From Escherichia phage JY01, in sequence record OR995200.1: a DNA stretch of 64,000 nt; one strand, 5' to 3'. Each line of letters begins with the position of its first letter. Position 1 is the stretch's first letter. Shown here one piece after another: positions 17,550 through 46,987 of this stretch. The translations under genes and the position numbers were made by a program. The notes under the pieces were generated by a model. That model was not told where the DNA came from, did no database searches, and saw nothing but the letters and a program-made list of their open reading frames with translations.

Positions 17550-18020
17550 TTAATCATGTTTCCACACCCCATCGGTATTTGACCAAAGTCGCTGATTGTC
17601 TGATCCTCGCCACAGCTTTTTGGTCGGAAGATTTTTCTCATACTTCCCATCAATAATAACATCAACATATTTAAGCATTTCTAGTTGTTTAATATCTTCA
17701 AACTTATATCCTGTCCACAACCAAATGCTTTTATTGGGATAAAGATTTTTTACTGTTTGAACGATGCAATGAATAACATCTCGGTTATCAGGATAGAGAG
17801 GGTCACCTCCGGTTATAGTCAATCCTTCTATATAATCATTATTCAAACATTCAATCAATTGTTCTAGTGTTTCACCAGTGAATGGAATACCATTTCTAGC
17901 ATTCCATGTTGATTTATTATAACACCCTTCGCATTTATGCAAACAACCTGTGACGAAAAGAACGACCCTGCATCCAGGGCCATTCACAAAATCACAGGGA
18001 TAAAATCTATCATAATTCAT
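17550..18020 (-). CDS. nrdG: Anaerobic ribonucleotide reductase activating protein (radical SAM)
   Basis: 156 aa; cysteine cluster CLHKCEGC near N-terminus. Confidence 0.85.
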   Translation of the reverse strand: MNYDRFYPCDFVNGPGCRVVLFVTGCLHKCEGCYNKSTWNARNGIPFTGETLEQLIECLNNDYIEGLTITGGDPLYPDNRDVIHCIVQTVKNLYPNKSIWLWTGYKFEDIKQLEMLKYVDVIIDGKYEKNLPTKKLWRGSDNQRLWSNTDGVWKHD

Positions 18021-19834
18021 TGGTGTTTAACCCTATGCATGATTTCTTTATTTTTACCGAGATTAAATCCGCGTTCGTTCGGATTTCCCAAATAACCACA
18101 TGTTCTTCTTATGGTATTCATCTTTTTAGGATCAGTTTCTCCGCAAATAGAACAAACAAATCCGTTTTCAGTAGGAGTCATTTCATGGGTACTTCCACAT
18201 GTAAAACATTTATCTACTGGCATATTAACACCAAAATAATCTAAATGTTGTGCGGCATAATCCCATACAGCCTCAAGACCTTTTAAGTTATTTTTCATAT
18301 CAGGAAGTTCAACATAAGAAATGTGACCACCTGTCGCAATGAAATGATATGGCGCTTCACGAGAAATCTTTTCAAACGGAGTAACATTTTCTTCTACTGA
18401 AACGTGGAAACTGTTAGTGTACCAGCCTTTATCAGTAACATCCTTTACACTTCCATATTTTTCTGTATCAAGTTTACAGAAGCGATAGCAAAGGTTTTCA
18501 GCAGGAGTAGAATACAAGCTAAAAGCAAATCCAGTTCTTTCAGTCCACTGTTTAAGATGAGCATTCATTTTAGTTAAAATTTCTTGCCCAATATCACGAC
18601 CGACAAGAATATTCAATTCGTGAATACCAATGTATCCTAAAGACACTGAACTTCTACCGTTTTTAAATAACTCAATTATGTCGTCATCAGGTTTAAGACG
18701 AACCCCGAATGCACCTTCTTGGTAAAGAATAGGAGCAACAGTCGCTTTAACTCCTTTTAAGGAACTAATTCTACACATCAAAGCTTCAAAACATAAATCC
18801 ATTCGCTCATTGAACAATTCAGTAAATTTCTGTTCATTGAACTGTGTTCCAATATAAGAATCTAACGCAATACGAGGAAGATTCAGTGTTACAACACCAA
18901 GATTATTACGTCCATCAAGAATTTCATTGCCAGTCGAATCTTTCCATACGCTCAAGAAACTACGGCATCCCATCGGGGAAACAGGAACAGATGAACCAGT
19001 GATAGCTTTATTGTTCTTAGCTGAAATAATATCAGGATACATCCTTTTGCTTGCACACTCTAAAGCAAGCTGCTTAATATCATAGTTCGGATCGTCTTTA
19101 TAAAGATTAACACCTTCTTCAACAAACATAACAAGCTTAGGGAAAATAGGAGTTATCCCATCACGACCAAGACCTTTAATACGATTTTTCAAAATTGCTT
19201 TCTGAATCATTCGTTCAGTCCAGTCAGTTCCTGTACCAAATGTAATTGTTACAAAAGGAGTCTGTCCGTTTGAACTAAAGAGAGTATTTACTTCATATTC
19301 ATAAGCTTGGAATGCATCGTATACGTCTTTTTCTGTTTTAGATTGGGCATAATTCAGTGCATCGGCGATTTGCCATTTTTCTGCGTCTTCGATATGTTTT
19401 GCATAGGTGCGTTTAACATAAGGAGAAAGTACTTTATCTACATTAGCAAAAGTCGTTCCGCCATATTGATGGGAAGCAACTTGCGCAGTAATTTGTGCCA
19501 TAATTGCAGTAGCAACACCGATTGATTTAGGAGTTTCAATCTGCGCATTACCAAGCTTAAATCCGTTCTCAAGCATTCCTTTTAAATCTACTAAACAACA
19601 ATTAGTAAATGGAAGAGCAGGGGAATAATCAATATCATGAAAATGAATAATTCCGCTTTCATGCGCTTTCATAATAAAAGACGGGACCATATTTTTGGCA
19701 ATGTGTTTAGACACAATACCAGCCATAAGGTCCCGTTGAGTTGGAAAAACACGAGAATCTTTATTAGCATTCTCGTTTAAAAGGTCTTTATTAGTTTTAT
19801 GAATCAATCCTTCAATTTCTTTTTCAATTGTCAT
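18017..19834 (-). CDS. nrdD: Anaerobic ribonucleoside-triphosphate reductase, uninterrupted
   Basis: 605 aa; C-terminal glycyl-radical region RTCGYLG and Zn cysteines CFTCGS..CSICG. Confidence 0.9.
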   Translation of the reverse strand: MTIEKEIEGLIHKTNKDLLNENANKDSRVFPTQRDLMAGIVSKHIAKNMVPSFIMKAHESGIIHFHDIDYSPALPFTNCCLVDLKGMLENGFKLGNAQIETPKSIGVATAIMAQITAQVASHQYGGTTFANVDKVLSPYVKRTYAKHIEDAEKWQIADALNYAQSKTEKDVYDAFQAYEYEVNTLFSSNGQTPFVTITFGTGTDWTERMIQKAILKNRIKGLGRDGITPIFPKLVMFVEEGVNLYKDDPNYDIKQLALECASKRMYPDIISAKNNKAITGSSVPVSPMGCRSFLSVWKDSTGNEILDGRNNLGVVTLNLPRIALDSYIGTQFNEQKFTELFNERMDLCFEALMCRISSLKGVKATVAPILYQEGAFGVRLKPDDDIIELFKNGRSSVSLGYIGIHELNILVGRDIGQEILTKMNAHLKQWTERTGFAFSLYSTPAENLCYRFCKLDTEKYGSVKDVTDKGWYTNSFHVSVEENVTPFEKISREAPYHFIATGGHISYVELPDMKNNLKGLEAVWDYAAQHLDYFGVNMPVDKCFTCGSTHEMTPTENGFVCSICGETDPKKMNTIRRTCGYLGNPNERGFNLGKNKEIMHRVKHQ

Positions 19835-28938: not shown

Positions 28939-29952
28939 TCATTTATAATAACTTCGGTGGTTTTCAAGATAGACCTTCTCAAGGAAGTCATCCCAGAAAC
29001 TCATGTCTACTGTTTTAGGCATACCGTTCTTAGAAGCTTCAGTAGATGCTGCTTCTACTTGATCGACCACATCTTCTAAAAACTCTTGAACCGTTTTAAA
29101 TGGATGCTTACCCAACTTCACGTCGAGAATAAATGGAGCGTCTTGAAGTGGATAAATCAAGTCGCCAGTTTTGTAAATTTCCAATAGTTGAAGTCCACCA
29201 CGACAGGCATGACTCAGAGCTTTCCAGTCAATGCCTTCATTGGCTTCGGCCTTACGAGCACGTTCACCATATTCAGCATCTAATTTGTTCAGTGACTGCT
29301 TAAGCTCAATAAGAGAAAGCGTTGTCTGATATTTACGACCCAATACAGTGTAGAACGTTTGTGGACCTGTTTTCTCATGATTATGGAATACCCATTCACA
29401 GAACTCGTTTTCTGGAAGACGATGCTTAATATCTTCAATTTTAGTGCGACGTTGTCCTTGTGTTCCATCTTCTCGGTAGACATTCCGTTGATCAGGAATT
29501 TGATTAACTACTTTCAATACATCACGTAATGCAGCCAAACGAGAACCCTTGACACCGTATTTAGAAGCTTGCTTGCGGACATATCCTAAATAGGATTTCA
29601 TGTTAGTCGTATAAAAACGAGAACGGTTGTCTTGAATAAACTTCCACACATCAGGCAAATCGGATTTAACCACTAGTTCAGGTGGAGTGTGAAGCATATC
29701 CAATGCTACAGTTTCACCATCTGCTGCTAATTTAAAGAAATATTTAAGACTGTATAGTTCATGGTCAATATCATCTTTAGTGTTTTTAGATGATGTGTTG
29801 TTAGTGTTTTTACTCATATGCTCTTTAACATTTCCGATAAGAATATCGCGAGCACGAGGAACAAAGATTTCTTTAAAATCTACATCAGATTCTGGAGTAG
29901 AAGTTCCATAAAGATGACTACCAAAATAGCTTTTCATTACTGTTTTCATCAT
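28939..29952 (-). CDS. Pol-beta-superfamily nucleotidyltransferase
   Basis: N-terminal GSHLYGTSTPESDVD (GS-x10-DxD) motif. Confidence 0.55.
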   Translation of the reverse strand: MMKTVMKSYFGSHLYGTSTPESDVDFKEIFVPRARDILIGNVKEHMSKNTNNTSSKNTKDDIDHELYSLKYFFKLAADGETVALDMLHTPPELVVKSDLPDVWKFIQDNRSRFYTTNMKSYLGYVRKQASKYGVKGSRLAALRDVLKVVNQIPDQRNVYREDGTQGQRRTKIEDIKHRLPENEFCEWVFHNHEKTGPQTFYTVLGRKYQTTLSLIELKQSLNKLDAEYGERARKAEANEGIDWKALSHACRGGLQLLEIYKTGDLIYPLQDAPFILDVKLGKHPFKTVQEFLEDVVDQVEAASTEASKNGMPKTVDMSFWDDFLEKVYLENHRSYYK

Positions 29953-30410
29953 TCAGCCTTATATTCAATAACAGGACATACTTTAGCTTTACGGGCTTTT
30001 AAAAATTCGACGATAATAGATTTCTTGGGTTGAATAGGAGGTAAACCTTTATACGCCCTATCAATATTTTCTACATGTAAAGCATAATCCTTTTTCCATT
30101 TATAATCTTTATATTTTTCATGCAGTTGTGCAGGAATAACAAATGAACCAATAATAAGTAAAACAAGCAAAATGGCAAGTATAAATGCTGATGGAATAAG
30201 AGTCCATAAACTACCAAAAATAAGCCATTTCTGCATGATTTCTGCACAGATAATAGTTAGACCTGCGAGTATAGTACATCCGAAAAAAGAAACGAAAAAT
30301 GTAGGAATAACAACAGACCAAAAATACGCGCATAGTGTCTTAGGTCGTTGCCATTCATCGTTAAACAATTTGAATAATTTATAGTGCCAAGAGTTTTCAT
30401 TAATAATCAT
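29949..30410 (-). CDS. Multi-pass membrane protein
   Basis: 153 aa, three or more hydrophobic helices; stop overlaps downstream start (ATGATGA). Confidence 0.45.
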   Translation of the reverse strand: MIINENSWHYKLFKLFNDEWQRPKTLCAYFWSVVIPTFFVSFFGCTILAGLTIICAEIMQKWLIFGSLWTLIPSAFILAILLVLLIIGSFVIPAQLHEKYKDYKWKKDYALHVENIDRAYKGLPPIQPKKSIIVEFLKARKAKVCPVIEYKAE

Positions 30411-30412
30411 AA

Positions 30413-30934
30413 TTATCCTTTCATTGAAGGCGTAACGGTTGTTAAATACTTAATCATAGCTTCAGCTTCTGATTTTGATAATGAAATTTCTTCATTGTTT
30501 TGACGAATAGAAATAAAATCCGGATGACGGTCACCACCAGCTTTTAAAACACACATATAAGTATCGACTTCGCCTTCAATATTTGAAATGATTGAAGCAG
30601 TTCCGCATGAATGTGGTTTTTGATAAATCAATACAGCTTTTCTTCCACCGTTTGACTGTTCATAGGCTTTTAATACATCAAGCAAATCAGTTCTTTTATC
30701 AATAGCTAAAATGTTATTTTCATCTTCAATGTTAAATCCTTCGGATACTTCATAAAGTGTTACCCATAAATCACCGATGTCAATAACAGCATTTACTTTT
30801 CCACGACTTTCAAGAGTATGACAAATTTTCTTGATTTCGTCATAACTCATTTTAATAATATCATCTCCTTGACTAAGGAAGATGTCATTTTTAAATTCAA
30901 CACGAATTAAACCGCTTCCACTTGAAATAAACAT
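30413..30934 (-). CDS. Paralog pair member 1
   Basis: 173 aa; C-terminus SEAEAMIKYLTTVTPSMKG resembles neighbour. Confidence 0.45.
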   Translation of the reverse strand: MFISSGSGLIRVEFKNDIFLSQGDDIIKMSYDEIKKICHTLESRGKVNAVIDIGDLWVTLYEVSEGFNIEDENNILAIDKRTDLLDVLKAYEQSNGGRKAVLIYQKPHSCGTASIISNIEGEVDTYMCVLKAGGDRHPDFISIRQNNEEISLSKSEAEAMIKYLTTVTPSMKG

Positions 30935-30940
30935 ATTTCC

Positions 30941-31495
30941 TCACTTTGAAATCATAGTTGGAATGACAGAATCAAGATAAGTCTTTAGTGCAATAGCTTC
31001 GTCTTTGGTAAATGTGACAATATGTGATCGAAAATCGTCAATTTGACGAATAGATACTATATCTCCCTCTTCATAGCATTTTGAAACATTTAAAATAGTT
31101 TCATCATTCTGATTACAGGAGTTAGTAATAATAGCATTACATTTTTTAAACCATTTTAAATTATGTTTTCTTTTAGTAGAATCATAAAAATATTTAATGT
31201 TAGTTATAAAATTATCCCAATTATTAATTGATAAGCACATTGACTCGCTTTTAATATTAAATCCTGGGCATGAAGAATAAAAATGAATTTTATGCTCATC
31301 ATTAATGCTTACAATTTTATCAGTGTAAGCATATTCAATTTGGGTTAAATGAACAATTTCACTAGACGTAAAATATAACATATCATCTTCTTGCGTCAAA
31401 CGATACATGTTATTTACTTTTTCTATAGCCAATTCACCAAAAAGCACACTATCTTCTAATACTAATCGTTTCATATTAATCCTTTTTATTGGCAT
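30941..31495 (-). CDS. Paralog pair member 2
   Basis: 184 aa; C-terminus KDEAIALKTYLDSVIPTMISK. Confidence 0.45.
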   Translation of the reverse strand: MPIKRINMKRLVLEDSVLFGELAIEKVNNMYRLTQEDDMLYFTSSEIVHLTQIEYAYTDKIVSINDEHKIHFYSSCPGFNIKSESMCLSINNWDNFITNIKYFYDSTKRKHNLKWFKKCNAIITNSCNQNDETILNVSKCYEEGDIVSIRQIDDFRSHIVTFTKDEAIALKTYLDSVIPTMISK

Positions 31496-31754
31496 GAATT
31501 TGTTCTAAAATTTTAGAGTATTCCTTTGTATCAGATTTACGTACAATCGATACACTATACGGCATACTATCGGTGTCTTTTATAAAGCGTTCCAAATGAC
31601 ATTCTAATAAAATTTCTGGATTATAAATCGTGTACATCAAATTACCTGTTGCTCCACGATATTGACAGATTTCTACTGATTGAACACCATTCCATAATTT
31701 TGTTAAGACCAAATCACCTACTTCTAATTTAGGAAAGCCCATGTTATTCACCAA
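31476..31754 (-). CDS. Hypothetical protein
   Basis: 92 aa ORF. Confidence 0.4.
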   Translation of the reverse strand: MVNNMGFPKLEVGDLVLTKLWNGVQSVEICQYRGATGNLMYTIYNPEILLECHLERFIKDTDSMPYSVSIVRKSDTKEYSKILEQIHANKKD

Positions 31755-31929
31755 TTAAAGTTTCAATATAAGAATCAAGATTTACTTTAGCTTCTTCCAT
31801 AAGAGTTTTGTATTTAATCTTGTTGGCATGTCCGGAGAAAGCTGATTCATCAATAATTGTTGATGTATGAACAGCTTTACTATACGTCTCAATTAATTCT
31901 CTTAATTTAAAAGCCTGCTCACTTGTCAT
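31744..31929 (-). CDS. Hypothetical small protein
   Basis: 61 aa ORF. Confidence 0.35.
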   Translation of the reverse strand: MTSEQAFKLRELIETYSKAVHTSTIIDESAFSGHANKIKYKTLMEEAKVNLDSYIETLIGE

Positions 31930-32256
31930 TACATACTCCTTTGAATAATATCAATAATGTTGTTCACCAAATTATAAGTAAACATTGGGTAATTATATTG
32001 AATCATCACATACACAACAAACAAAACTTTCATTCTCTTCTCCTTGACAGTTGGCAAGATTACTATACCATAATCTTGCCAACTTGTAAACCATTAAATG
32101 ACGTTTTCGATAAAATTCTGAAGCTTTGTATGAGCATCAACCATGATTTTCAATTCTTCTTTAGCGAAAGCTGTGCCTCTTTCACGAGAAGAGCATTCAT
32201 AGTCAGAAACTGCATTAGCATATTCTTCAATTAGTTTCATTAAAAACATCTGCTTT

Positions 32257-32451
32257 TCAGTTTTCATTATTCCACCTAATCATTTCAAGATATTGAACTA
32301 ACTTAGCTTTAGATTTATCCAAATCCTTTTTAGCTGTTTCTATACCGTCGTATGAATATCCTTCACAATGCTCAACTGCTAATTGATATGAATCTATTTC
32401 AATATCACGTGCTAATTTAATGATTTTTTCAAACTGTTCATGTGTTAGCAT
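32257..32451 (-). CDS. Hypothetical small protein
   Basis: 64 aa ORF. Confidence 0.4.
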   Translation of the reverse strand: MLTHEQFEKIIKLARDIEIDSYQLAVEHCEGYSYDGIETAKKDLDKSKAKLVQYLEMIRWNNEN

Positions 32452-32453
32452 AC

Positions 32454-32693
32454 TTAAACTCTCGTATTATGATCGATAATTTCATCAAGAAACATATCTA
32501 ACGCTTCTAAAGCATTATCAACTTTAGTTTCAAAGTCTTTAATGCCTTTATTCGAAATACCCGATGAATACCAAGCAAAGTCAATCAGCTCTTCATCTGC
32601 TTTACGAATTGAAGTCACTAATTCCTTGATTTTATCTGCTTGCTCTATACTAATCATTATTCCACCACATATGACAGAGAGAATATTGCACAC
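32454..32693 (-). CDS. Hypothetical small protein
   Basis: 79 aa ORF; start may be internal. Confidence 0.35.
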
Positions 32694-32845
32694 GCCATGT
32701 GAGTTGCAACTTCATCACACATATTATAACGTTTCTTAAGAAGTTCTACAAGTTCTTCACTAGTAACTTCATCCATGTCGACGAAAAAATCACCATTAAT
32801 GATGACGTAGATATTTCCTTCTTGATTAAGTGCTTCAATTTTCAT
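32657..32845 (-). CDS. Hypothetical small protein
   Basis: Start ATG 32843-32845 downstream of promoter cassette. Confidence 0.4.
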
Positions 32846-32925
32846 GATGTTCTCCTCTTTATCCGATAGTTGTATAGTATCACAGCTCAAACGGAAAGTA
32901 AACCGGTAAAATGAAAAAAGTCTCC
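32846..32925 (-). promoter_or_regulatory. Early promoter cassette copy 5 (diverged)
   Basis: -35 TTTACT (32897-32902), -10 TACTAT (32874-32879). Confidence 0.45.
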
Positions 32926-32935
32926 CGAAGGAGAC
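32915..32935 (-). terminator. Terminator-like UUCG hairpin
   Basis: RNA-sense GUCUCC-UUCG-GGAGAC followed by U-run. Confidence 0.55.
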
Positions 32936-32940
32936 TAATG

Positions 32941-33327
32941 TTATTCGAGGGAAAGAAGATACTTACTCTGGTAAAACATTCCAGTAATATCATCTATCGT
33001 GCTTTGAATGGCTGGAGGCATTTCTTTATAAATGCTGTTAGATTGGTCTAGTATGCGATCAATCATTTTAATTGTGTCGGTAGGAAGTTTACTGGCATCT
33101 GGAATTGAAGGCGTGTATTTTCTACCAGAATACCCCAAATATTGCTCACCAAATTTATCAATCAAATCTGGCAATTCGGAGAAAATAAAATCGTATGCTT
33201 TGTGTCTAGCATAACTTTTAGTTTCAAAATGCGCAGAATGAAAATAAGCTTGTGCAGCCATTAATAAACCTAAGTATTCATCTGCCTTTGAAGGTTTTCC
33301 ACTTTGTGAAAAGTCGCTGAATTTCAT
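32941..33327 (-). CDS. Hypothetical protein
   Basis: 128 aa ORF upstream of rI. Confidence 0.45.
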
Positions 33328-33617
33328 TCAGTCTCCAATTTAATGTTCATAATTCTAGCGTATGATTGTGCCATCTCCGCGCCTCGTTCTATACATTCAA
33401 AATCAGAAGAGCACGGGTCATTTTTATAGGTCGTTCTCATAAAACTATAGAACTGTTCAGATGATTCTACGCTTTTATTTTCAAAAAGCATATAAACATG
33501 TCTAATACCAGATTCCATAAATTTATCAAAATGAGGATCGACATTCGCTTCAATCGATGGTGATAAAGCAAATGACAATCCTAGCATGGCAAATAGTGCC
33601 GTTGCTTTTAAGGCCAT
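33324..33617 (-). CDS. rI: Lysis inhibition regulator (antiholin)
   Basis: 97 aa with N-terminal signal-anchor; sequence recalled as T4 RI-like; adjacent to tk. Confidence 0.75.
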   Translation of the reverse strand: MALKATALFAMLGLSFALSPSIEANVDPHFDKFMESGIRHVYMLFENKSVESSEQFYSFMRTTYKNDPCSSDFECIERGAEMAQSYARIMNIKLETE

Positions 33618-33629
33618 AAAGGCCTCCTA

Positions 33630-33842
33630 TCATTTTTGTCCTGTATTTACTTTATGCCGATGCACGGCCTTAACTTTATCAAGGTATTTTTCAAAATTTC
33701 GCAATCTAGTATAGTCTGCCGGAGATTGGTTGAGTGATACTTCTCGACGCAAAGCTGAAATGATATTTCCAACTTCCCTACGAATTTCATCTAATTGAAG
33801 CACAGTAAGATTGCGAAGTTGCTTTTCAGTTAATTGTAGCAT
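33630..33842 (-). CDS. Hypothetical protein
   Basis: 70 aa ORF between tk and rI. Confidence 0.45.
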
Positions 33843-33884
33843 ATATACCCCTTTAGTTAGATAAACCTATTTATAACTTTTGCA

Positions 33885-34466
33885 CTAACCGAGCTTTTTA
33901 GTTAATTCGTTCCAGTGTTTTCTACACAAAGAAACATAAATTTCATCACCAATACAGATTTGATTACCTTCTTTAACTGGTGTTCCATCTTCCATTAATC
34001 GAGCTGTCATAATCGCTTTTTTGCCGCAATGACAAACTGCCTTTAGTTCAATAAGTTTATCTGCAATCGCCAAAAGTTCTTTAGAACCTTCAAACAATTT
34101 TCCAGCGAAATCAGTCCTTAATCCATAAGCCATAACAGGAACATTATATGTATCAACAATTCGGCTTAATTGGTGCACCTGTTCAGTTTTTAAAAACTGA
34201 GCTTCATCTACAAATACGCAATGAATATCTTTTTGTGCTTCAGCCCATTTATAGAACTCGAAAATATCCATATCATCTGTAATAATATTCGCTTCCTGCT
34301 TAATTCCAATGCGAGAAACAACTTCACAGACAGAATCGCGAGTATCAATAGCAGGCTTAAGAACTAATACACCCATTCCACGTTCTTTATAATTATGTGC
34401 AGCAGTCAAAAGAGAAGCAGATTTTCCAGCATTCATTGCTGCATAAGTAAAAATTAAACTCGCCAT
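33885..34466 (-). CDS. tk: Thymidine kinase
   Basis: 193 aa; P-loop MNAGKSASLL and C-terminal zinc cysteines. Confidence 0.9.
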   Translation of the reverse strand: MASLIFTYAAMNAGKSASLLTAAHNYKERGMGVLVLKPAIDTRDSVCEVVSRIGIKQEANIITDDMDIFEFYKWAEAQKDIHCVFVDEAQFLKTEQVHQLSRIVDTYNVPVMAYGLRTDFAGKLFEGSKELLAIADKLIELKAVCHCGKKAIMTARLMEDGTPVKEGNQICIGDEIYVSLCRKHWNELTKKLG

Positions 34467-34475
34467 ATCACCTTC

Positions 34476-34661
34476 TTAAAGCGTATTCACATAAGCTATT
34501 AATTCATTTTCTTTCTTATCAAACCGATCAGCAAATTCTTCCTGCTGTTCGGGAGATAGCGGGCCGTATTCATCATAAAAGGTGTTTGCTTCTGTATGCT
34601 CATCTAGAAGTTCATGGATAAGCTCAAACAATTTATCTTTTTGTTCTTTGCTTAGGCTCAC
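34476..34661 (-). CDS. Hypothetical acidic small protein
   Basis: 61 aa ORF. Confidence 0.4.
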   Translation of the reverse strand: MSLSKEQKDKLFELIHELLDEHTEANTFYDEYGPLSPEQQEEFADRFDKKENELIAYVNTL

Positions 34662-34830
34662 AGTATGTCAATCCCCAAAAGTTTTAAAATGACTCGTTTC
34701 TGATTCATAACCGCTACGATTGAATGACCGTTGGGGTCTTTTTGACCTGATCCAATTATAAATCCTTTTTGCGCAGAAAGTTTAATCAAAACATCAAGTT
34801 CACGTAATAATTGATATTTTAAATCATCAT

Positions 34831-35058
34831 TCATTTTGGTTTACCTTCTTTAACGAAATCTGGATAAGGATAAAATCCCGAATAAAATCCTTCACCTTTA
34901 TGATTGATACATCCTTTATTAGAACAATAGCACCAATAATCGAAATCACAAGCCATTTCATCGTTGCATAAAGCAAAAACAACCGGCCACTTACACTTTT
35001 CACAGTGGGCATTTTTAAGAATACTAGTTTGGCTCATAACCATGTAACCTTTAAGCAA
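34831..35058 (-). CDS. Cysteine-rich small protein
   Basis: 75 aa with 8 Cys and one His in CxxC-like spacing. Confidence 0.4.
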   Translation of the reverse strand: MLKGYMVMSQTSILKNAHCEKCKWPVVFALCNDEMACDFDYWCYCSNKGCINHKGEGFYSGFYPYPDFVKEGKPK

Positions 35059-35246
35059 TATTCTTCTACATGTTGTTTACGACCTTTCTTATCAATAAAG
35101 GTATATTCAACGAATGCCCCAATGTAGTCTTTATCTACATCATGTGGACTATTAATTGGACATTTAGTACGGCAAATGCGTTCCCATTGACGAATAATTA
35201 CTGCTTTGTTTTTAGGATCAAACGGATGTGGGTAATGCACTTTCAT
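35034..35246 (-). CDS. Hypothetical protein
   Basis: 70 aa ORF. Confidence 0.4.
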   Translation of the reverse strand: MKVHYPHPFDPKNKAVIIRQWERICRTKCPINSPHDVDKDYIGAFVEYTFIDKKGRKQHVEEYCLKVTWL

Positions 35247-35697
35247 AATCCACCACTATTAAATCAATATCAGGAGTAAACATGTCGATTAATTTAGAAA
35301 CCTTATCCCAATCGCCGCCAGCAATACCACAACCTATGCGTGGAATGTAAATTACCGGTTTAAACAAAAGGGTTTCTGCCTGTAGATTTAATTCTATCAT
35401 GCAGTTTACTAAAGCACCATAATCAAGATTAGGACCTGGTTCGTATTGCGTATACAGGTTATAGCATATACCAAATCCCGTAGGACTATGTTTAAAAACA
35501 ATAGACATATCGCCTAATTTATCGCGAGAACCGTACTCAGTAGTGGTTTTATCTATTTCTAAAATTTTGGGATAGGCTCTGGCTAATTGACCCGCTACAC
35601 CTGAACCCATAGTATGAAAACAATTGCACCCGTGCGCAATAATATTACCTTCAAGAAAGAGGGCGACAATATCGCCCTTGATATATTTTACAATCAT
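35218..35697 (-). CDS. Macro-domain-like protein
   Basis: GDIVALF..IAHGCNCF..MGSGVAGQLARAYP resembles macro domain nucleotide-binding loops. Confidence 0.5.
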   Translation of the reverse strand: MIVKYIKGDIVALFLEGNIIAHGCNCFHTMGSGVAGQLARAYPKILEIDKTTTEYGSRDKLGDMSIVFKHSPTGFGICYNLYTQYEPGPNLDYGALVNCMIELNLQAETLLFKPVIYIPRIGCGIAGGDWDKVSKLIDMFTPDIDLIVVDYESALPTSV

Positions 35698-36035
35698 CTA
35701 GTACTCAATCCTCGATTATAAGAATCTACCAAACGGTCAACCATTGAATGACAAGCGGCTTTATCTTTCTCCTCCGCAACTGAACATTCTAAGGTATTCC
35801 ACTTTTTAGCATATCGTTTTAACAATGTATCATTTTTGTATCTGCTTGATTTATCTCTTTCTCCGTCTTTATATGCATATATTAATTTCTGCGCAAATTC
35901 AGCTTGGCATGCTTTATTTTTCCCGCAATAATCCGCTGCAGTACGGTTTACATACTCTCTAATTTCAGTATATGATGTATCTGCTAACGCAGAAAATGAA
36001 ATTAATCCTATACATAAAACCAAAATTTTAGTCAT
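35694..36035 (-). CDS. Secreted cysteine-containing protein
   Basis: Signal peptide MTKILVLCIGLISFSALA. Confidence 0.45.
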   Translation of the reverse strand: MTKILVLCIGLISFSALADTSYTEIREYVNRTAADYCGKNKACQAEFAQKLIYAYKDGERDKSSRYKNDTLLKRYAKKWNTLECSVAEEKDKAACHSMVDRLVDSYNRGLSTR

Positions 36036-36573
36036 TTACTATTTCCAAAAGTTTATTATTTTTAAGGTAATTAGCCTTTTCTAGGACTTCAGAAGCATAT
36101 TTAGAACCTGCTTTAACATTCCATCCCGAATTATAAGAGGATATTGCTTTTCTTATATCGCCCTTATGTATATTTAACCAATAAGAAAGTTCAATGTACG
36201 CCCAGGAAGCTGAATTGGACCGTTTATTCAACATTCTTTTTATTTCAGCATCGGTCATATTATAACCAAGTTCCTTAACTCTTGCTCGCATAGTAGGCAA
36301 ATAATTTTGGAACATTCCGTAGGCGTGATGCTTTGGTTTAGATTTTAAATTAACTCCGCCAGAGCTTTCTTGCCATAAAATGGCTGCCATTATATGACCT
36401 AATCCGCTCTTGTGGATATTTTTGTGTGTTTTATATTTTCCATCCTTAGAAAATTGTTCCCCGAATTGATACGCGTAACGCATGTTATCGAGTTGGACAT
36501 TACTGAAAGTATGCTCGGAGCTATGTGCCATCATTGAAATGGCCAATAGACCAGCGAGTAGTGCTTTTCTCAT
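36028..36573 (-). CDS. Lytic transglycosylase-like protein with signal peptide
   Basis: QESSGG..AYGMFQ catalytic-region motif; N-terminal signal peptide. Confidence 0.5.
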   Translation of the reverse strand: MRKALLAGLLAISMMAHSSEHTFSNVQLDNMRYAYQFGEQFSKDGKYKTHKNIHKSGLGHIMAAILWQESSGGVNLKSKPKHHAYGMFQNYLPTMRARVKELGYNMTDAEIKRMLNKRSNSASWAYIELSYWLNIHKGDIRKAISSYNSGWNVKAGSKYASEVLEKANYLKNNKLLEIVND

Positions 36574-37422: not shown

Positions 37423-37646
37423 ATACTGGCTTCTTTGAGTTTCGTTTTAGCAATAGTTAACTGATCGAGGCTTTCAGCATAATTCTTCGCGAGTTCATAG
37501 TCTTCACAGCTATCAAATGCTTCCCAAAATTCATCGTATAAAGCATCAAAGATAAGTCCTAAACGAACTTCAGCGTCTTTGATAGCATTCACTTTACCGA
37601 TTTTCTCTTCAGTATGCGGCTTATAACCTTTAATGTCTTCAATCAT
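37380..37646 (-). CDS. Hypothetical protein
   Basis: Start set at internal ATG; overlaps neighbour. Confidence 0.4.
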
Positions 37647-37860
37647 ATTTGACTTCCTCACCAGTACATAAATCATATTCAACTAAACGAATAGGTTCAT
37701 GAATGCCATATCCCTGAACAGAAATTTCTGTAGTAGGATAAATTCCATCAATATCACCCATATTCCACGCTTCGTTAAATTGCTGTTCGCCTGAATTACT
37801 AAACCACTCGGCGAAAGCATTTAGCACATCTTTAGAACCTTCAATAATTATCTTTGCCAT
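37639..37860 (-). CDS. Hypothetical protein
   Basis: 73 aa ORF. Confidence 0.4.
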   Translation of the reverse strand: MAKIIIEGSKDVLNAFAEWFSNSGEQQFNEAWNMGDIDGIYPTTEISVQGYGIHEPIRLVEYDLCTGEEVKYD

Positions 37861-38222
37861 TACAAACTCTCGGTGAAGGTACGAGCGATAACGTCGCGCT
37901 GCTGTTCCGGAGTCAGAGAGTTAAAGCGAACTGCATAACCGGATACACGGATGGTCAGCTGCGGATATTTTTCCGGATGCTTAACTGCATCTTCCAGAGT
38001 TTCACGACGCAGAACGTTAACGTTCAGGTGTTGACCACCTTCAATTTTAACTGTAGGCTGTGGCTCAATTTCAATTTCACGGGCATGCAAACCGTAGAAA
38101 ATTTCTGGGTCTACAAAAGAGTCCTCTTTAAAGGTTTTAGAGACAATAATTCGTGCTTGAATACCATCTTCAAAATAAATAGTGCCTTTATGTGTGCCTT
38201 CAAGAATTTGATATGCTTTCAT
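37860..38222 (-). CDS. Autonomous glycyl-radical cofactor (GrcA/YfiD-like)
   Basis: C-terminal [29 protein letters not shown] glycyl-radical motif, recalled as near-identical to E. coli GrcA. Confidence 0.8.
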
Positions 38223-38229
38223 ATAAACC

Positions 38230-38559
38230 TCAATTAGAAAATAAATTTATCCAAGATTGTTCTTTAATTAAAAATGGCTCAGCATCATATGCCATTAAAC
38301 TTTGGGTAATTAATCCTTTAAAAGGTCCATCAATAAATTCCATGGTAAAATATGGAATTTTATTCATTAGCCGTGCATTAGGAGCAGTACACAAAACTCT
38401 GCATCCTTTGAATACACCTTTTTGTAATTTGTATTGCTTGGGATAAAATTCGCTCAAAATGTTATTATTTGCCAAAATTTCAAAATGATTCACCAATTTA
38501 TTTTTAATAGTTTTTGGCGAAAAATAAAGATATTCGAAAAGCTGTGTGTCTGTCATCAT
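38230..38559 (-). CDS. Hypothetical protein
   Basis: 109 aa ORF. Confidence 0.45.
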
Positions 38560-39722: not shown

Positions 39723-40139
39723 TTAAATGTAAATATTTTTACCGTAGTATTTATACCAGTGTGGCTTCATTAAAATTTTTTCATCGAGTCGTTGTTGACT
39801 CAATTTAATAGCTGATTTGCATGGATTATAATCATTTTTCCATTCTGCTGGAATATCGCTGATGTCAGGAACTTCAGTATCTTTTATATTGAACCCACGT
39901 TTTAAGCATTCCGTTATAATGTCTGATTGACGCTTTCGCAAAAATTCTAACTTATCGTAAAAGAACGTAACATGACCAGAGCCTAAAATAAACTCGGAAG
40001 ATATTTTAAAATCTTTAACCCGCTTACCATTTGCCACATGTTTACGAACTATACCAAAAACGCGTGGCAATTCACGGTATTCTGCGATTAAATGTTGATC
40101 AGCAAGTTCAGATACTAAAGTCAAATTAATACGAGTCAT
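39723..40139 (-). CDS. denV: Endonuclease V (pyrimidine dimer glycosylase)
   Basis: 138 aa, [17 protein letters not shown] matches T4 DenV as recalled. Confidence 0.9.
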
Positions 40140-40198
40140 TTTATCCCTCCAAGTAACTGTGAATATACTATCACAATTCTAGAAGAAAGTAAACAACT

Positions 40199-41167
<969 letters not shown>

Positions 41168-45965: not shown

Positions 45966-46041
45966 TGGTCGAGGCAGTAGGGATCGAACCTACGACCTAG
46001 GACTTAGAAGGTCCTTGCTCTTCCTTCTGAGCTATGCCCCG
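45966..46041 (-). tRNA. tRNA-Arg (anticodon UCU)
   Basis: Manual cloverleaf: acceptor 7 bp, D-stem GCTC/GAGC, anticodon loop CUUCUAA, T-loop, CCA encoded. Confidence 0.8.
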
Positions 46042-46045
46042 TAAT

Positions 46046-46121
46046 TGGGGTGACCGATGGGAGTCGAACCCATGACTACGAGAATCACAATCTCGAGTTC
46101 TACCAACTGAACTACGGCCAC
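46046..46121 (-). tRNA. tRNA-His (anticodon GUG)
   Basis: Manual cloverleaf; anticodon loop UUGUGAU, discriminator C73, CCA encoded. Confidence 0.7.
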
Positions 46122-46235
46122 ATTAATACCTACTCCAACAATCAAGATGTCTTCACACGAAATTAAGAGAAGAGTGATCAGTTCAACCCCTATAATCGCG
46201 TCAAGTAGATATTAATGTGACAGTTGTCACAAATT

Positions 46236-46310
46236 TGGCGGACGTGATAGGATTCGAACCTATAACCAATCGCTTAACAGGCGATCGCTCTGCCATTGAG
46301 CTACACATCC
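46236..46310 (-). tRNA. tRNA-Asn (anticodon GUU)
   Basis: Manual cloverleaf; anticodon loop CUGUUAA, discriminator G73, CCA encoded. Confidence 0.7.
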
Positions 46311-46314
46311 AAAT

Positions 46315-46401
46315 TGGTGGGGAGTGATGGAGTCGAACCACCCGAGTCGCAATGACAATGAATTTACAGTCCACACCGCTACCTCTACGGGATAACTCCC
46401 C
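46315..46401 (-). tRNA. tRNA-Tyr (anticodon GUA), long variable arm
   Basis: 87 nt; anticodon loop CUGUAAA; acceptor GGGGAGU/ACUCCCC. Confidence 0.65.
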
Positions 46402-46414
46402 TTAATTCATAATT

Positions 46415-46489
46415 TGGTGGCCCTGGGTGGAATTGAACCACCATCTGGCGATTATGAGTCGCTTGCTTGAACCTTCCAGCTACAGGGCC
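46415..46489 (-). tRNA. tRNA with CAU anticodon (Ile-lysidine or Met)
   Basis: Manual cloverleaf; anticodon loop CUCAUAA; CCA encoded. Confidence 0.7.
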
Positions 46490-46490
46490 T

Positions 46491-46566
46491 TGGTGCTGAT
46501 TGACGGAATCGAACCGCCGACCTTCTCATTACAAGTGAGTTGCTCTACCTACTGAGCTAAATCAGC
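46491..46566 (-). tRNA. tRNA-Thr (anticodon UGU)
   Basis: Manual cloverleaf; anticodon loop CUUGUAA. Confidence 0.75.
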
Positions 46567-46571
46567 AAAAC

Positions 46572-46661
46572 TGGCGGAGGTGATAGGATTCGAACCTATG
46601 AATCGCCGGAGCGACTGCCGGTTTTCAAGACCGGTGCATTCAACCACTCTGCCACACCTCC
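46572..46661 (-). tRNA. tRNA-Ser (anticodon UGA), long variable arm
   Basis: 90 nt; anticodon stem CCGGU/ACCGG, loop CUUGAAA. Confidence 0.75.
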
Positions 46662-46663
46662 AG

Positions 46664-46737
46664 TCTCCATACAAGGATTTGAACCTTGGACCTCCTGATC
46701 CCAAATCAGGCGCTCTACCAAACTGAGCTACACGGAG
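46664..46737 (-). tRNA. tRNA-Pro (anticodon UGG), CCA not encoded
   Basis: Anticodon stem CCUGA/UCAGG, loop UUUGGGA; T-loop UUCAAAU. Confidence 0.75.
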
Positions 46738-46747
46738 TAAATTAAAT

Positions 46748-46821
<74 letters not shown>

Positions 46822-46826
46822 AAATT

Positions 46827-46913
46827 TGGTGCGAGAAGTGGGACTCGAACCCACAAGGAAATCATTCCGCAGCATTTTAAGTGCTGTGCCTTTACCAATT
46901 TGACCATTCTCGC
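46827..46913 (-). tRNA. tRNA-Leu (anticodon UAA), long variable arm
   Basis: 87 nt; anticodon stem CAGCA/UGCUG, loop CUUAAAA. Confidence 0.8.
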
Positions 46914-46914
46914 G

Positions 46915-46987
46915 CTGGGAATAAAGGACTCGAACCTTTGCATCCTGGAATCAAAATCCAGTGCCTTACCAACTTGGCTAATTCCCA
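46915..46987 (-). tRNA. tRNA-Gln (anticodon UUG), CCA not encoded
   Basis: Anticodon stem CUGGA/UCCAG, loop UUUUGAU; acceptor complement exact. Confidence 0.75.

Follow-up and report, generated by a model that had tools for sequence, protein, structure and literature searches.

The vs.6 gene of Escherichia phage JY01, a Tequatrovirus, is very probably a phage version of the host gene grcA (yfiD), an old phage homologue in which the half encoding the glycyl-radical domain was overwritten by host grcA DNA. The gene was analysed within a stretch of 64,000 nucleotides (nt) of sequence record OR995200.1, hereafter the window, where it occupies positions 37860..38222 on the minus strand as an open reading frame (ORF) with an ATG start, coding for 120 amino acids (aa). 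This ORF is the already characterised T4-type gene vs.6 (Y06I), whose product is an autonomous glycyl radical cofactor of the GrcA/YfiD type. At the DNA level, it matches gene 184 of the Tequatrovirus teqskov, an Escherichia phage, at every position (100%), its identity to T4T vs.6 being 98.3%, and the encoded protein shows no amino-acid difference from that of T4T. Full-length matches are present in 865 phage records, and the gene order around vs.6 is that of T4 (regB, vs.8, vs.7, vs.6, vs.5, vs, tk, rI).

Judged from its nucleotide sequence, vs.6 is a mosaic consisting of a phage-type 5' half, a core of E. coli grcA DNA and a phage-type tail. The 5' part (gene nt 1-178, aa 1-59/60; 38045..38222, minus strand), delimited by composition and alignment, encodes a diverged homologue of GrcA's disordered N-terminal half, through which it binds cleaved pyruvate formate-lyase (PFL). 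It gives no DNA match to E. coli grcA, aligning with gaps at about 45% nt identity, and its GC content is 0.356; its GC content at third codon positions (GC3) is 0.237, equal to that of the flanking genes vs.7 (0.236) and vs.5 (0.23). The block that follows (gene nt 179-347; 37876..38044, minus strand) encodes the structured glycyl-radical domain and is identical to grcA of E. coli SK1144 at 169 of 169 nt, with 100% identity to E. coli chromosomes. Its boundaries are abrupt, with a GC content of 0.50 (vs 0.35 for phage-like sequence) and a GC3 of 0.429. The 3' tail (gene nt 348-363, i.e., the last five codons and the stop; 37860..37875, minus strand) carries phage-type synonymous codons when aligned to grcA, with five differences: TTC ACC GAG AGT TTG TAA in the window vs TTT ACT GAA AGC CTG TAA in E. 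coli. Taken as a unit, gene nt 179-363 match grcA at 97.3% identity (E 2e-81) in every one of the 5,426 complete E. coli genomes, and a megablast search of the whole window against these genomes reveals the block as its sole E. coli chromosome-like DNA. The left junction (ATT|GAAGG) falls at one and the same codon in the E. coli phages and the Klebsiella-infecting genus Jiaodavirus; it coincides with the start of alignable homology between the phage-type and host genes, seven residues inside the structured domain of YfiD (61-127). A segment of host identity and host composition is therefore flanked by phage-type sequence, which is the pattern applied to cyanophage psbA.

The earlier note on this DNA had described the C-terminal half of the protein as essentially that of E. 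coli GrcA/YfiD and the N-terminal half as divergent. Both statements are borne out: alignment with grcA gives 169 identical nt and 60 aa at 100% identity, twice the length originally quoted, with no sign of the low identity that would have spoken against the assignment, and the N-terminal halves share 14 of 40 residues (E 5e-6). Its suggestion of a recent capture from a host was half right, because the gene is a mosaic: nt 179-347 are host-derived, but the gene as a whole is not. The comparison of base composition and codon usage with the flanking genes divides in the same way, the 5' half agreeing with the flanks and the block being host-like.

A recent capture of the entire host grcA, with subsequent rapid divergence of its N-terminal half, is accordingly very improbable, even though the C-terminal 60 aa are those of E. 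coli GrcA and the two proteins are homologous over almost their full length. Nucleotide identity drops in a single step from 100% to about 45% at nt 178/179, and the GC3 of the 5' half is that of the neighbouring phage genes. The 3' 185 nt of E. coli grcA match 752 phage records, 638 of them at 95% identity or more, but its 5' 199 nt match none of 50,697 phage records, and therefore there is no trace of whole-gene capture. Moreover, Mosigvirus, Jiaodavirus, Karamvirus and Slopekvirus all share this phage-type 5' half, which diverges in step with phage taxonomy. A host-identical stretch in a phage assembly is also a classic sign of contamination. Nevertheless, mis-assembly of host reads into the phage contig can almost certainly be dismissed: the block lies in frame inside a conserved phage ORF, it recurs in the 638 independent phage records at 95% or more, including T4 (AF158101), RB69 and RB51, and the tail bears phage-specific codons and overlaps the start of vs.5.

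The donor was examined against a set of 81 bacterial grcA loci, comprising 80 GTDB species representatives and E. coli SK1144, to which E. coli K-12 and K. pneumoniae were later added. Differences per host were counted in a 157-nt core of the block for the window, T4T and one Mosigvirus contig. The phage block differs from grcA at 0 of 157 sites in E. coli SK1144, 1 in E. coli K-12, 2 in a sister Escherichia species, 12 in Citrobacter amalonaticus, 19 in K. pneumoniae and 28 in Salmonella. These counts bear directly on the idea that selection or convergence on a highly constrained sequence, without any recombination with the host, made the block identical. The protein domain is indeed extremely conserved, with the identical 60 aa present in many hosts. 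However, the identity extends over all synonymous sites across 169 nt, whereas 12-28 sites differ in bacteria whose 60 aa are identical or almost so, and 24-49 sites in other phage lineages with a similar domain, and Klebsiella phages carry the synonymous sites of K. pneumoniae instead. Constraint is thus exceedingly unlikely as an explanation.

The direction of transfer is not given by sequence identity alone, and in principle E. coli and K. pneumoniae could have received the 3' half of grcA from phages. The identities of the 5' and 3' halves of E. coli grcA are, respectively, 0.846 and 0.842 to Salmonella, 0.851 and 0.863 to Enterobacter, and 0.841 and 0.885 to K. pneumoniae. Since the divergence is approximately equal in both halves, the host gene looks vertically inherited. 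Together with the host-like composition of the block (GC 0.50 vs 0.35), this points to a host-to-phage transfer whose putative donor is E. coli in the narrow sense. The opposite direction has very little to commend it, as the block is present at the grcA locus in all 5,426 E. coli genomes (next to ung and eamB where checked) and the phage blocks are nested within single host species.

Three host records are mentioned separately. NZ_JBQPOM010000029, labelled as the Gram-positive 'Vagococcus sp. WN89Y', contains an Enterobacteriaceae-type grcA with 91% protein identity to E. coli and is probably mislabelled or contaminated. CP125156, a 5.37-Mb K. pneumoniae replicon filed in PLSDB as 'plasmid unnamed2', is really a chromosome, which is why grcA is present in it. 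In LR134122 (PLSDB; K. aerogenes NCTC10006), an apparent frameshift has led to the annotation of grcA as a coding sequence of 324 nt, truncated in length.

The sister genus Jiaodavirus, which infects Klebsiella, offers a second case. Its 5' half differs from that of the window at 51 of 177 sites, and its block is 95.4% identical to grcA of K. pneumoniae, 91.4% to that of K. aerogenes and 86.7% to that of E. coli. In the 157-nt core, the Jiaodavirus phages KP1 and L117 lie, respectively, 4 and 1 sites from K. pneumoniae, vs 17 and 16 from another Klebsiella species and 19-20 from E. coli. On these counts, the Jiaodavirus block is an independent event with K. pneumoniae as the apparent donor. 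Homologues with the architecture of Vs.6 occur in several Straboviridae genera, in T5-like phages and in jumbo phages. Slopekvirus (Miro, KMI9), Karamvirus (CC31), Aeromonas phage Riv-10 and T5-like phages have a lower GC content in this part and stand 24-49 differences (of 157) away from each of the host grcA genes compared. The homologues of Slopekvirus, Karamvirus CC31, Aeromonas, T5-like and Asteriusvirus phages have no long exact runs in common with any of the 81 host grcA genes; in the jumbo Asteriusvirus TH47, no host-identical block is observed, the best agreement with any host gene being 128 of 183 tail nt. A Salmonella-type block was likewise absent from the phage records, where the best identity, 83.8%, arises from cross-matching by E. 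coli-type blocks.

The two segments of vs.6 also record different ages. Between the window (Tequatrovirus) and Mosigvirus (RB69-type), there are 17-19 differences in the 5' 177 nt vs 0-2 in the 170-nt block (Fisher test, p = 1e-5 and 6e-4). Synonymous changes affect 10 of 59 codons in the 5' part vs 0-1 of 56 in the block (p = 0.001-0.009). The neighbouring genes vs.5 and vs.7 are far less conserved than vs.6, with 50-85% nt identity between T4-type and RB69-type phages. The block, being far less diverged than both the 5' part and these flanks, is younger than the split between Tequatrovirus and Mosigvirus. Divergence in the 5' half tracks phage taxonomy (17, 51 and 72 of 177 sites between the window and RB69, KP1 and Miro, respectively), whereas the block follows the host species (0-2 differences from E. 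coli in the E. coli phages of this comparison, 1-4 from K. pneumoniae in Jiaodavirus), so that the two segments of the gene are incongruent.

Variation within the E. coli phages is also evident. Across 13 E. coli T-evens, the block lies 0 to 9 sites from E. coli, and the extremes, the window with 0 and EcNP1 with 9, differ in a relative-rate comparison (p = 0.004). In the last 16 nt, phage-type and E. coli-type codons are combined in at least eight ways among related phages, the most phage-type tail being that of the window, while that of Escherichia phage OES_C-2 differs from E. coli at a single site (E. coli-type save for GAG instead of GAA). The vs.6 gene of OES_C-2 (129-485) additionally lacks 6 nt, without loss of frame, in the linker immediately upstream of the block and encodes 118 aa. 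At grcA nt 240, E. coli SK1144 has T and K-12 has C; among the phages, C is found in RB69 and L092, T in most others and G in L096. These states are suggestive of a polymorphism common to E. coli and its phages.

According to the best reading of these sequences, the radical-domain half of vs.6 would have been overwritten by host grcA at least twice. The starting point would be an old phage homologue of grcA, whose radical-domain half was then replaced by the chromosomal gene, that of E. coli in Tequatrovirus and Mosigvirus and, independently, that of K. pneumoniae in Jiaodavirus, with the 5' half and the last few codons staying phage-type. Replicating phage DNA probably acquired the host sequence by homologous recombination (or gene conversion) with the chromosome. 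Marker rescue from plasmids is based on the readiness of T4 to recombine with homologous, cytosine-containing DNA inside the cell. A further, more tentative proposal, whose likelihood we place just short of even, is that the radical-domain half is repeatedly re-templated from the grcA of the species currently infected, in a self-reinforcing gene conversion. A host-identical block would make recombination with host DNA easy, so that the identity is kept, and this easier exchange would explain the near-zero divergence of the block. Such exchange would extend leftwards only as far as homology does, to a point near the transition from the disordered to the structured domain, and rightwards only up to the last few codons, where the gene overlaps the vs.5 translation start region. 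Hints in this direction are the two host-specific blocks in sister genera, the approximately zero block divergence between genera, the contrast of 0 vs 9 sites, the variable tails and nt 240.

At the protein level, the best match in a phmmer search against the PDB is E. coli GrcA (6owr, E 8.6e-42), residues 61-120 of Vs.6 corresponding to GrcA 68-127, i.e., to the 60 aa at 100% identity; an NMR structure identical to the C-terminal half has been solved. In the same type of search, residues 58-120 align to the C-terminus of PflB (697-759, E 5e-26). The Pfam Gly_radical model covers residues 61-101 only (E 2.8e-18), and the best NCBIfam model by a wide margin, TIGR04365 (autonomous glycyl radical cofactor GrcA; IPR011140), aligns over residues 20-120 (E 3.7e-45). 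Residue-by-residue alignment to 6owr and 1cm5 places the fingerprint RVSGYAV at residues 92-98, with Gly95 (codon 37938..37940, minus strand) as the predicted radical site, equivalent to GrcA G102 and PFL G734. Consequently, the assignment to the GrcA/YfiD-type autonomous glycyl-radical proteins made in the earlier note is supported by domain, family and structure matches. Vs.6 is a small stand-alone protein (120 aa) that carries its glycyl radical domain at the C-terminus and has no catalytic barrel. The 35% identity between the N-terminal halves, with the E value obtained from a pairwise alignment of these halves alone, shows at the level of sequence that they are homologous; this concerns homology alone and not functional equivalence.

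The function of Vs.6 is already established and was biochemically tested in 2001. Wagner et al. (2001, pmid 11444864; the group of Knappe), as cited by Andorfer et al. (2021, PMC8683613), found that E. coli YfiD and T4 Y06I each receive a glycyl radical from the PFL activating enzyme (PFL-AE), and that both restore O2-cleaved PFL; the citing paper presents these two as the sole validated 'spare part' proteins. The activation by PflA and the rescue of cleaved PFL were thus shown in vitro, by others, on the identical T4 protein. Residues 1-60 of YfiD are disordered, yet required for binding cleaved PFL and for efficient radical installation, and residues 61-127 form the structured domain, with the same fold as PFL 693-759 (PMC8683613). 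Time-resolved omics place T4 vs.6 in the early RNA class and the middle protein class (PMC9697503 supplement).

In the infected cell, going by published work on the identical T4 protein and on YfiD, the sequence of events would begin with cleavage of the host enzyme PflB by oxygen at its radical glycine. Vs.6 would then dock on the truncated PflB and provide a substitute glycyl-radical domain, the host activase PflA would place the radical on Gly95, and the output of formate and acetyl-CoA would restart. Because host protein synthesis halts after infection, the phage plausibly benefits from its own copy: GrcA and PflB would no longer be replaceable, and fermentative energy (ATP, acetyl-CoA) would still be needed at low or fluctuating oxygen.

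A different partner, the phage anaerobic ribonucleotide reductase NrdD, must also be considered. In this alternative, Vs.6 would not serve host PFL but would be a partner or spare part for NrdD after O2 cleavage, or else a substrate of NrdG. As the earlier note had stated, nrdD (18017..19834, minus strand; Pfam NRDD 4.2e-171, Gly_radical 1.4e-25) and nrdG, the radical-SAM activase of NrdD (17550..18020, minus strand; Pfam Fer4_12 2.3e-48, Radical_SAM), are both present in the window. NrdD is likewise a glycyl radical enzyme, and Nolan et al. (2006, PMC1524935), who reported only a Pfam match for vs.6, suggested a role in nucleotide metabolism. Despite these points, the NrdD alternative is improbable. 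The best BLASTP match between Vs.6 and the NrdD of the window has an E value of 6.2 and falls off the radical site, whereas the radical domain of Vs.6 is that of GrcA and close to the C-terminus of PflB; the published biochemistry, as reported in PMC8683613, indicates PFL and PFL-AE, and nrdD and nrdG are approximately 18 kb from vs.6, with many genes between. A link between Vs.6 and NrdD was rejected for want of sequence similarity to the NrdD C-terminus. Of the anaerobic 'toolkit' proposed earlier, the presence of the genes stands, but their connection amounts to co-occurrence. By megablast, nrdD itself shows no DNA similarity to E. coli.

Several observations weigh against the interpretation of vs.6 as a phage GrcA with a host-overwritten radical domain, or restrict its reach. 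The TIGR04365 score of Vs.6 (153.3 bits) is under the curated equivalog cut-off of 170, because its N-terminal half is divergent. The biochemistry was obtained in vitro on the T4 protein, not from phage JY01 itself, and is known via citing papers; the benefit to the phage in vivo is something we infer as plausible. The sharing of nt 240 may be homoplasy, since a third state (G) occurs in one phage. A single conversion followed by spread among co-infecting T-even genera cannot be separated from several independent transfers from E. coli to phage. Finally, the lack of a Salmonella-type block and the unconverted Karamvirus and Slopekvirus genes indicate that the process is not universal.

Regarding the immediate neighbourhood, vs.7 (38230..38559, minus strand) precedes vs.6 and ends 7 nt upstream of it, and a Shine-Dalgarno-like GAGG read from the sequence (38228..38231, minus strand), putatively serving vs.6, lies 5 nt upstream of the ATG and overlaps the vs.7 stop. 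The following gene, vs.5 (37639..37860, minus strand), has an ATG that overlaps the stop of vs.6 (TAATG). Neither vs.5 nor vs.7 has a Pfam match, and both belong to PHROG families of unknown function. A promoter and terminator scan was uninformative, with 14 promoter-like sites around vs.6 vs 14.0 expected. In PHROGs, Vs.6 belongs to phrog_1209, tagged 'unknown function' despite the published biochemistry, and across phage records the gene is annotated as hypothetical, as 'pyruvate formate-lyase', as 'ribonucleotide reductase subunit' or as GrcA.

Elsewhere in the window, 11 tRNA genes (Arg, His, Asn, Tyr, Met, Thr, Ser, Pro, Gly, Leu and Gln) are clustered at 45966-46987 on the minus strand. 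T4 has 8 tRNA genes, and only 6 tRNAs are annotated in the corresponding stretch of the teqskov record, from which the window may differ in this cluster. The region of tRNA-Tyr (46312-46405) matches, at 89.5% identity, a tRNA-Tyr carried by some E. coli plasmids of approximately 100 kb and constitutes the sole other host-like megablast match. In the teqskov record (MN895437), about eleven consecutive genes at 28950-36130 are annotated 'thioredoxin' and look like propagated errors. At 39783-40253 of the same record, nrdG is annotated 'pyruvate formate-lyase 1-activating enzyme', which is likely a propagated error as well, the window copy showing the NrdG-type Fer4_12 and Radical_SAM domains.

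As the function is already established, the finding as first noted adds nothing new; the interest lies in the mosaic. On at least two occasions, virulent T-even phages would have exchanged a segment of approximately 170 bp with the chromosome of their host, the donor in each case being the species infected. No description of a vs.6/grcA nucleotide mosaic was found in a literature search of incomplete coverage, and Petrov et al. (2010) do not mention vs.6. If the exchange is ongoing, the block could serve as a natural and easily assayed marker for the rate of host-to-phage recombination and, possibly, as a molecular record of recent host species in T4-like phages; it would also represent a case in which the phage's own PFL-docking N-terminal half is combined with the host's exact radical domain on loan. 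Should the proposed re-templating be true, it would clearly exemplify a virulent phage that follows its host species through recombination, in the only such segment of the 64-kb window. The gene also lends support to the idea that gut coliphages are under real selective constraint from fermentative energy metabolism when oxygen fluctuates.

Among known systems, the closest is T4 Vs.6/Y06I itself (UniProt P13316), the T4T protein being identical and the gene occupying the same place between vs.7 and vs.5. T4T vs.6 differs at 6 nt, all synonymous, three of which are in the last 16 nt, where the window has more phage-type codons. E. coli GrcA (YfiD, 6OWR) has in common with Vs.6 the small stand-alone form, the two-part architecture, the RVSGYAV radical loop and the 169 identical nt. 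In contrast, the N-terminal half of Vs.6 is seven residues shorter and approximately 35% identical, and vs.6 is found in a phage context with early/middle phage expression vs the host ung-grcA locus. With respect to the C-terminal glycyl radical domain of PflB (1CM5, 2PFL), residues 58-120 of Vs.6 are equivalent to the piece lost or displaced after oxygen cleavage, but Vs.6 wholly lacks the catalytic barrel and so cannot be an enzyme alone. T5.056 of T5, vs.6 of Karamvirus CC31, gp274 of Slopekvirus Miro and the homologue of Aeromonas phage Riv-10 resemble Vs.6 in architecture and radical motif, yet their 3' halves, at 24-49 of 157 sites from host grcA, represent the unconverted state.

Cyanophage psbA and psbD are host-derived metabolic genes with intragenic recombination between host and phage (Sullivan et al. 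2006, PMC1484495). As with vs.6, a phage copy of a host metabolic gene replaces a damage-prone host protein during infection, and patches of host-type sequence and composition lie inside the phage gene. The vs.6 patch differs in its 100% identity to one host species, in covering exactly the structured domain and in its occurrence in virulent coliphages. With these differences, psbA recombination is the nearest described parallel to the vs.6 mosaic.

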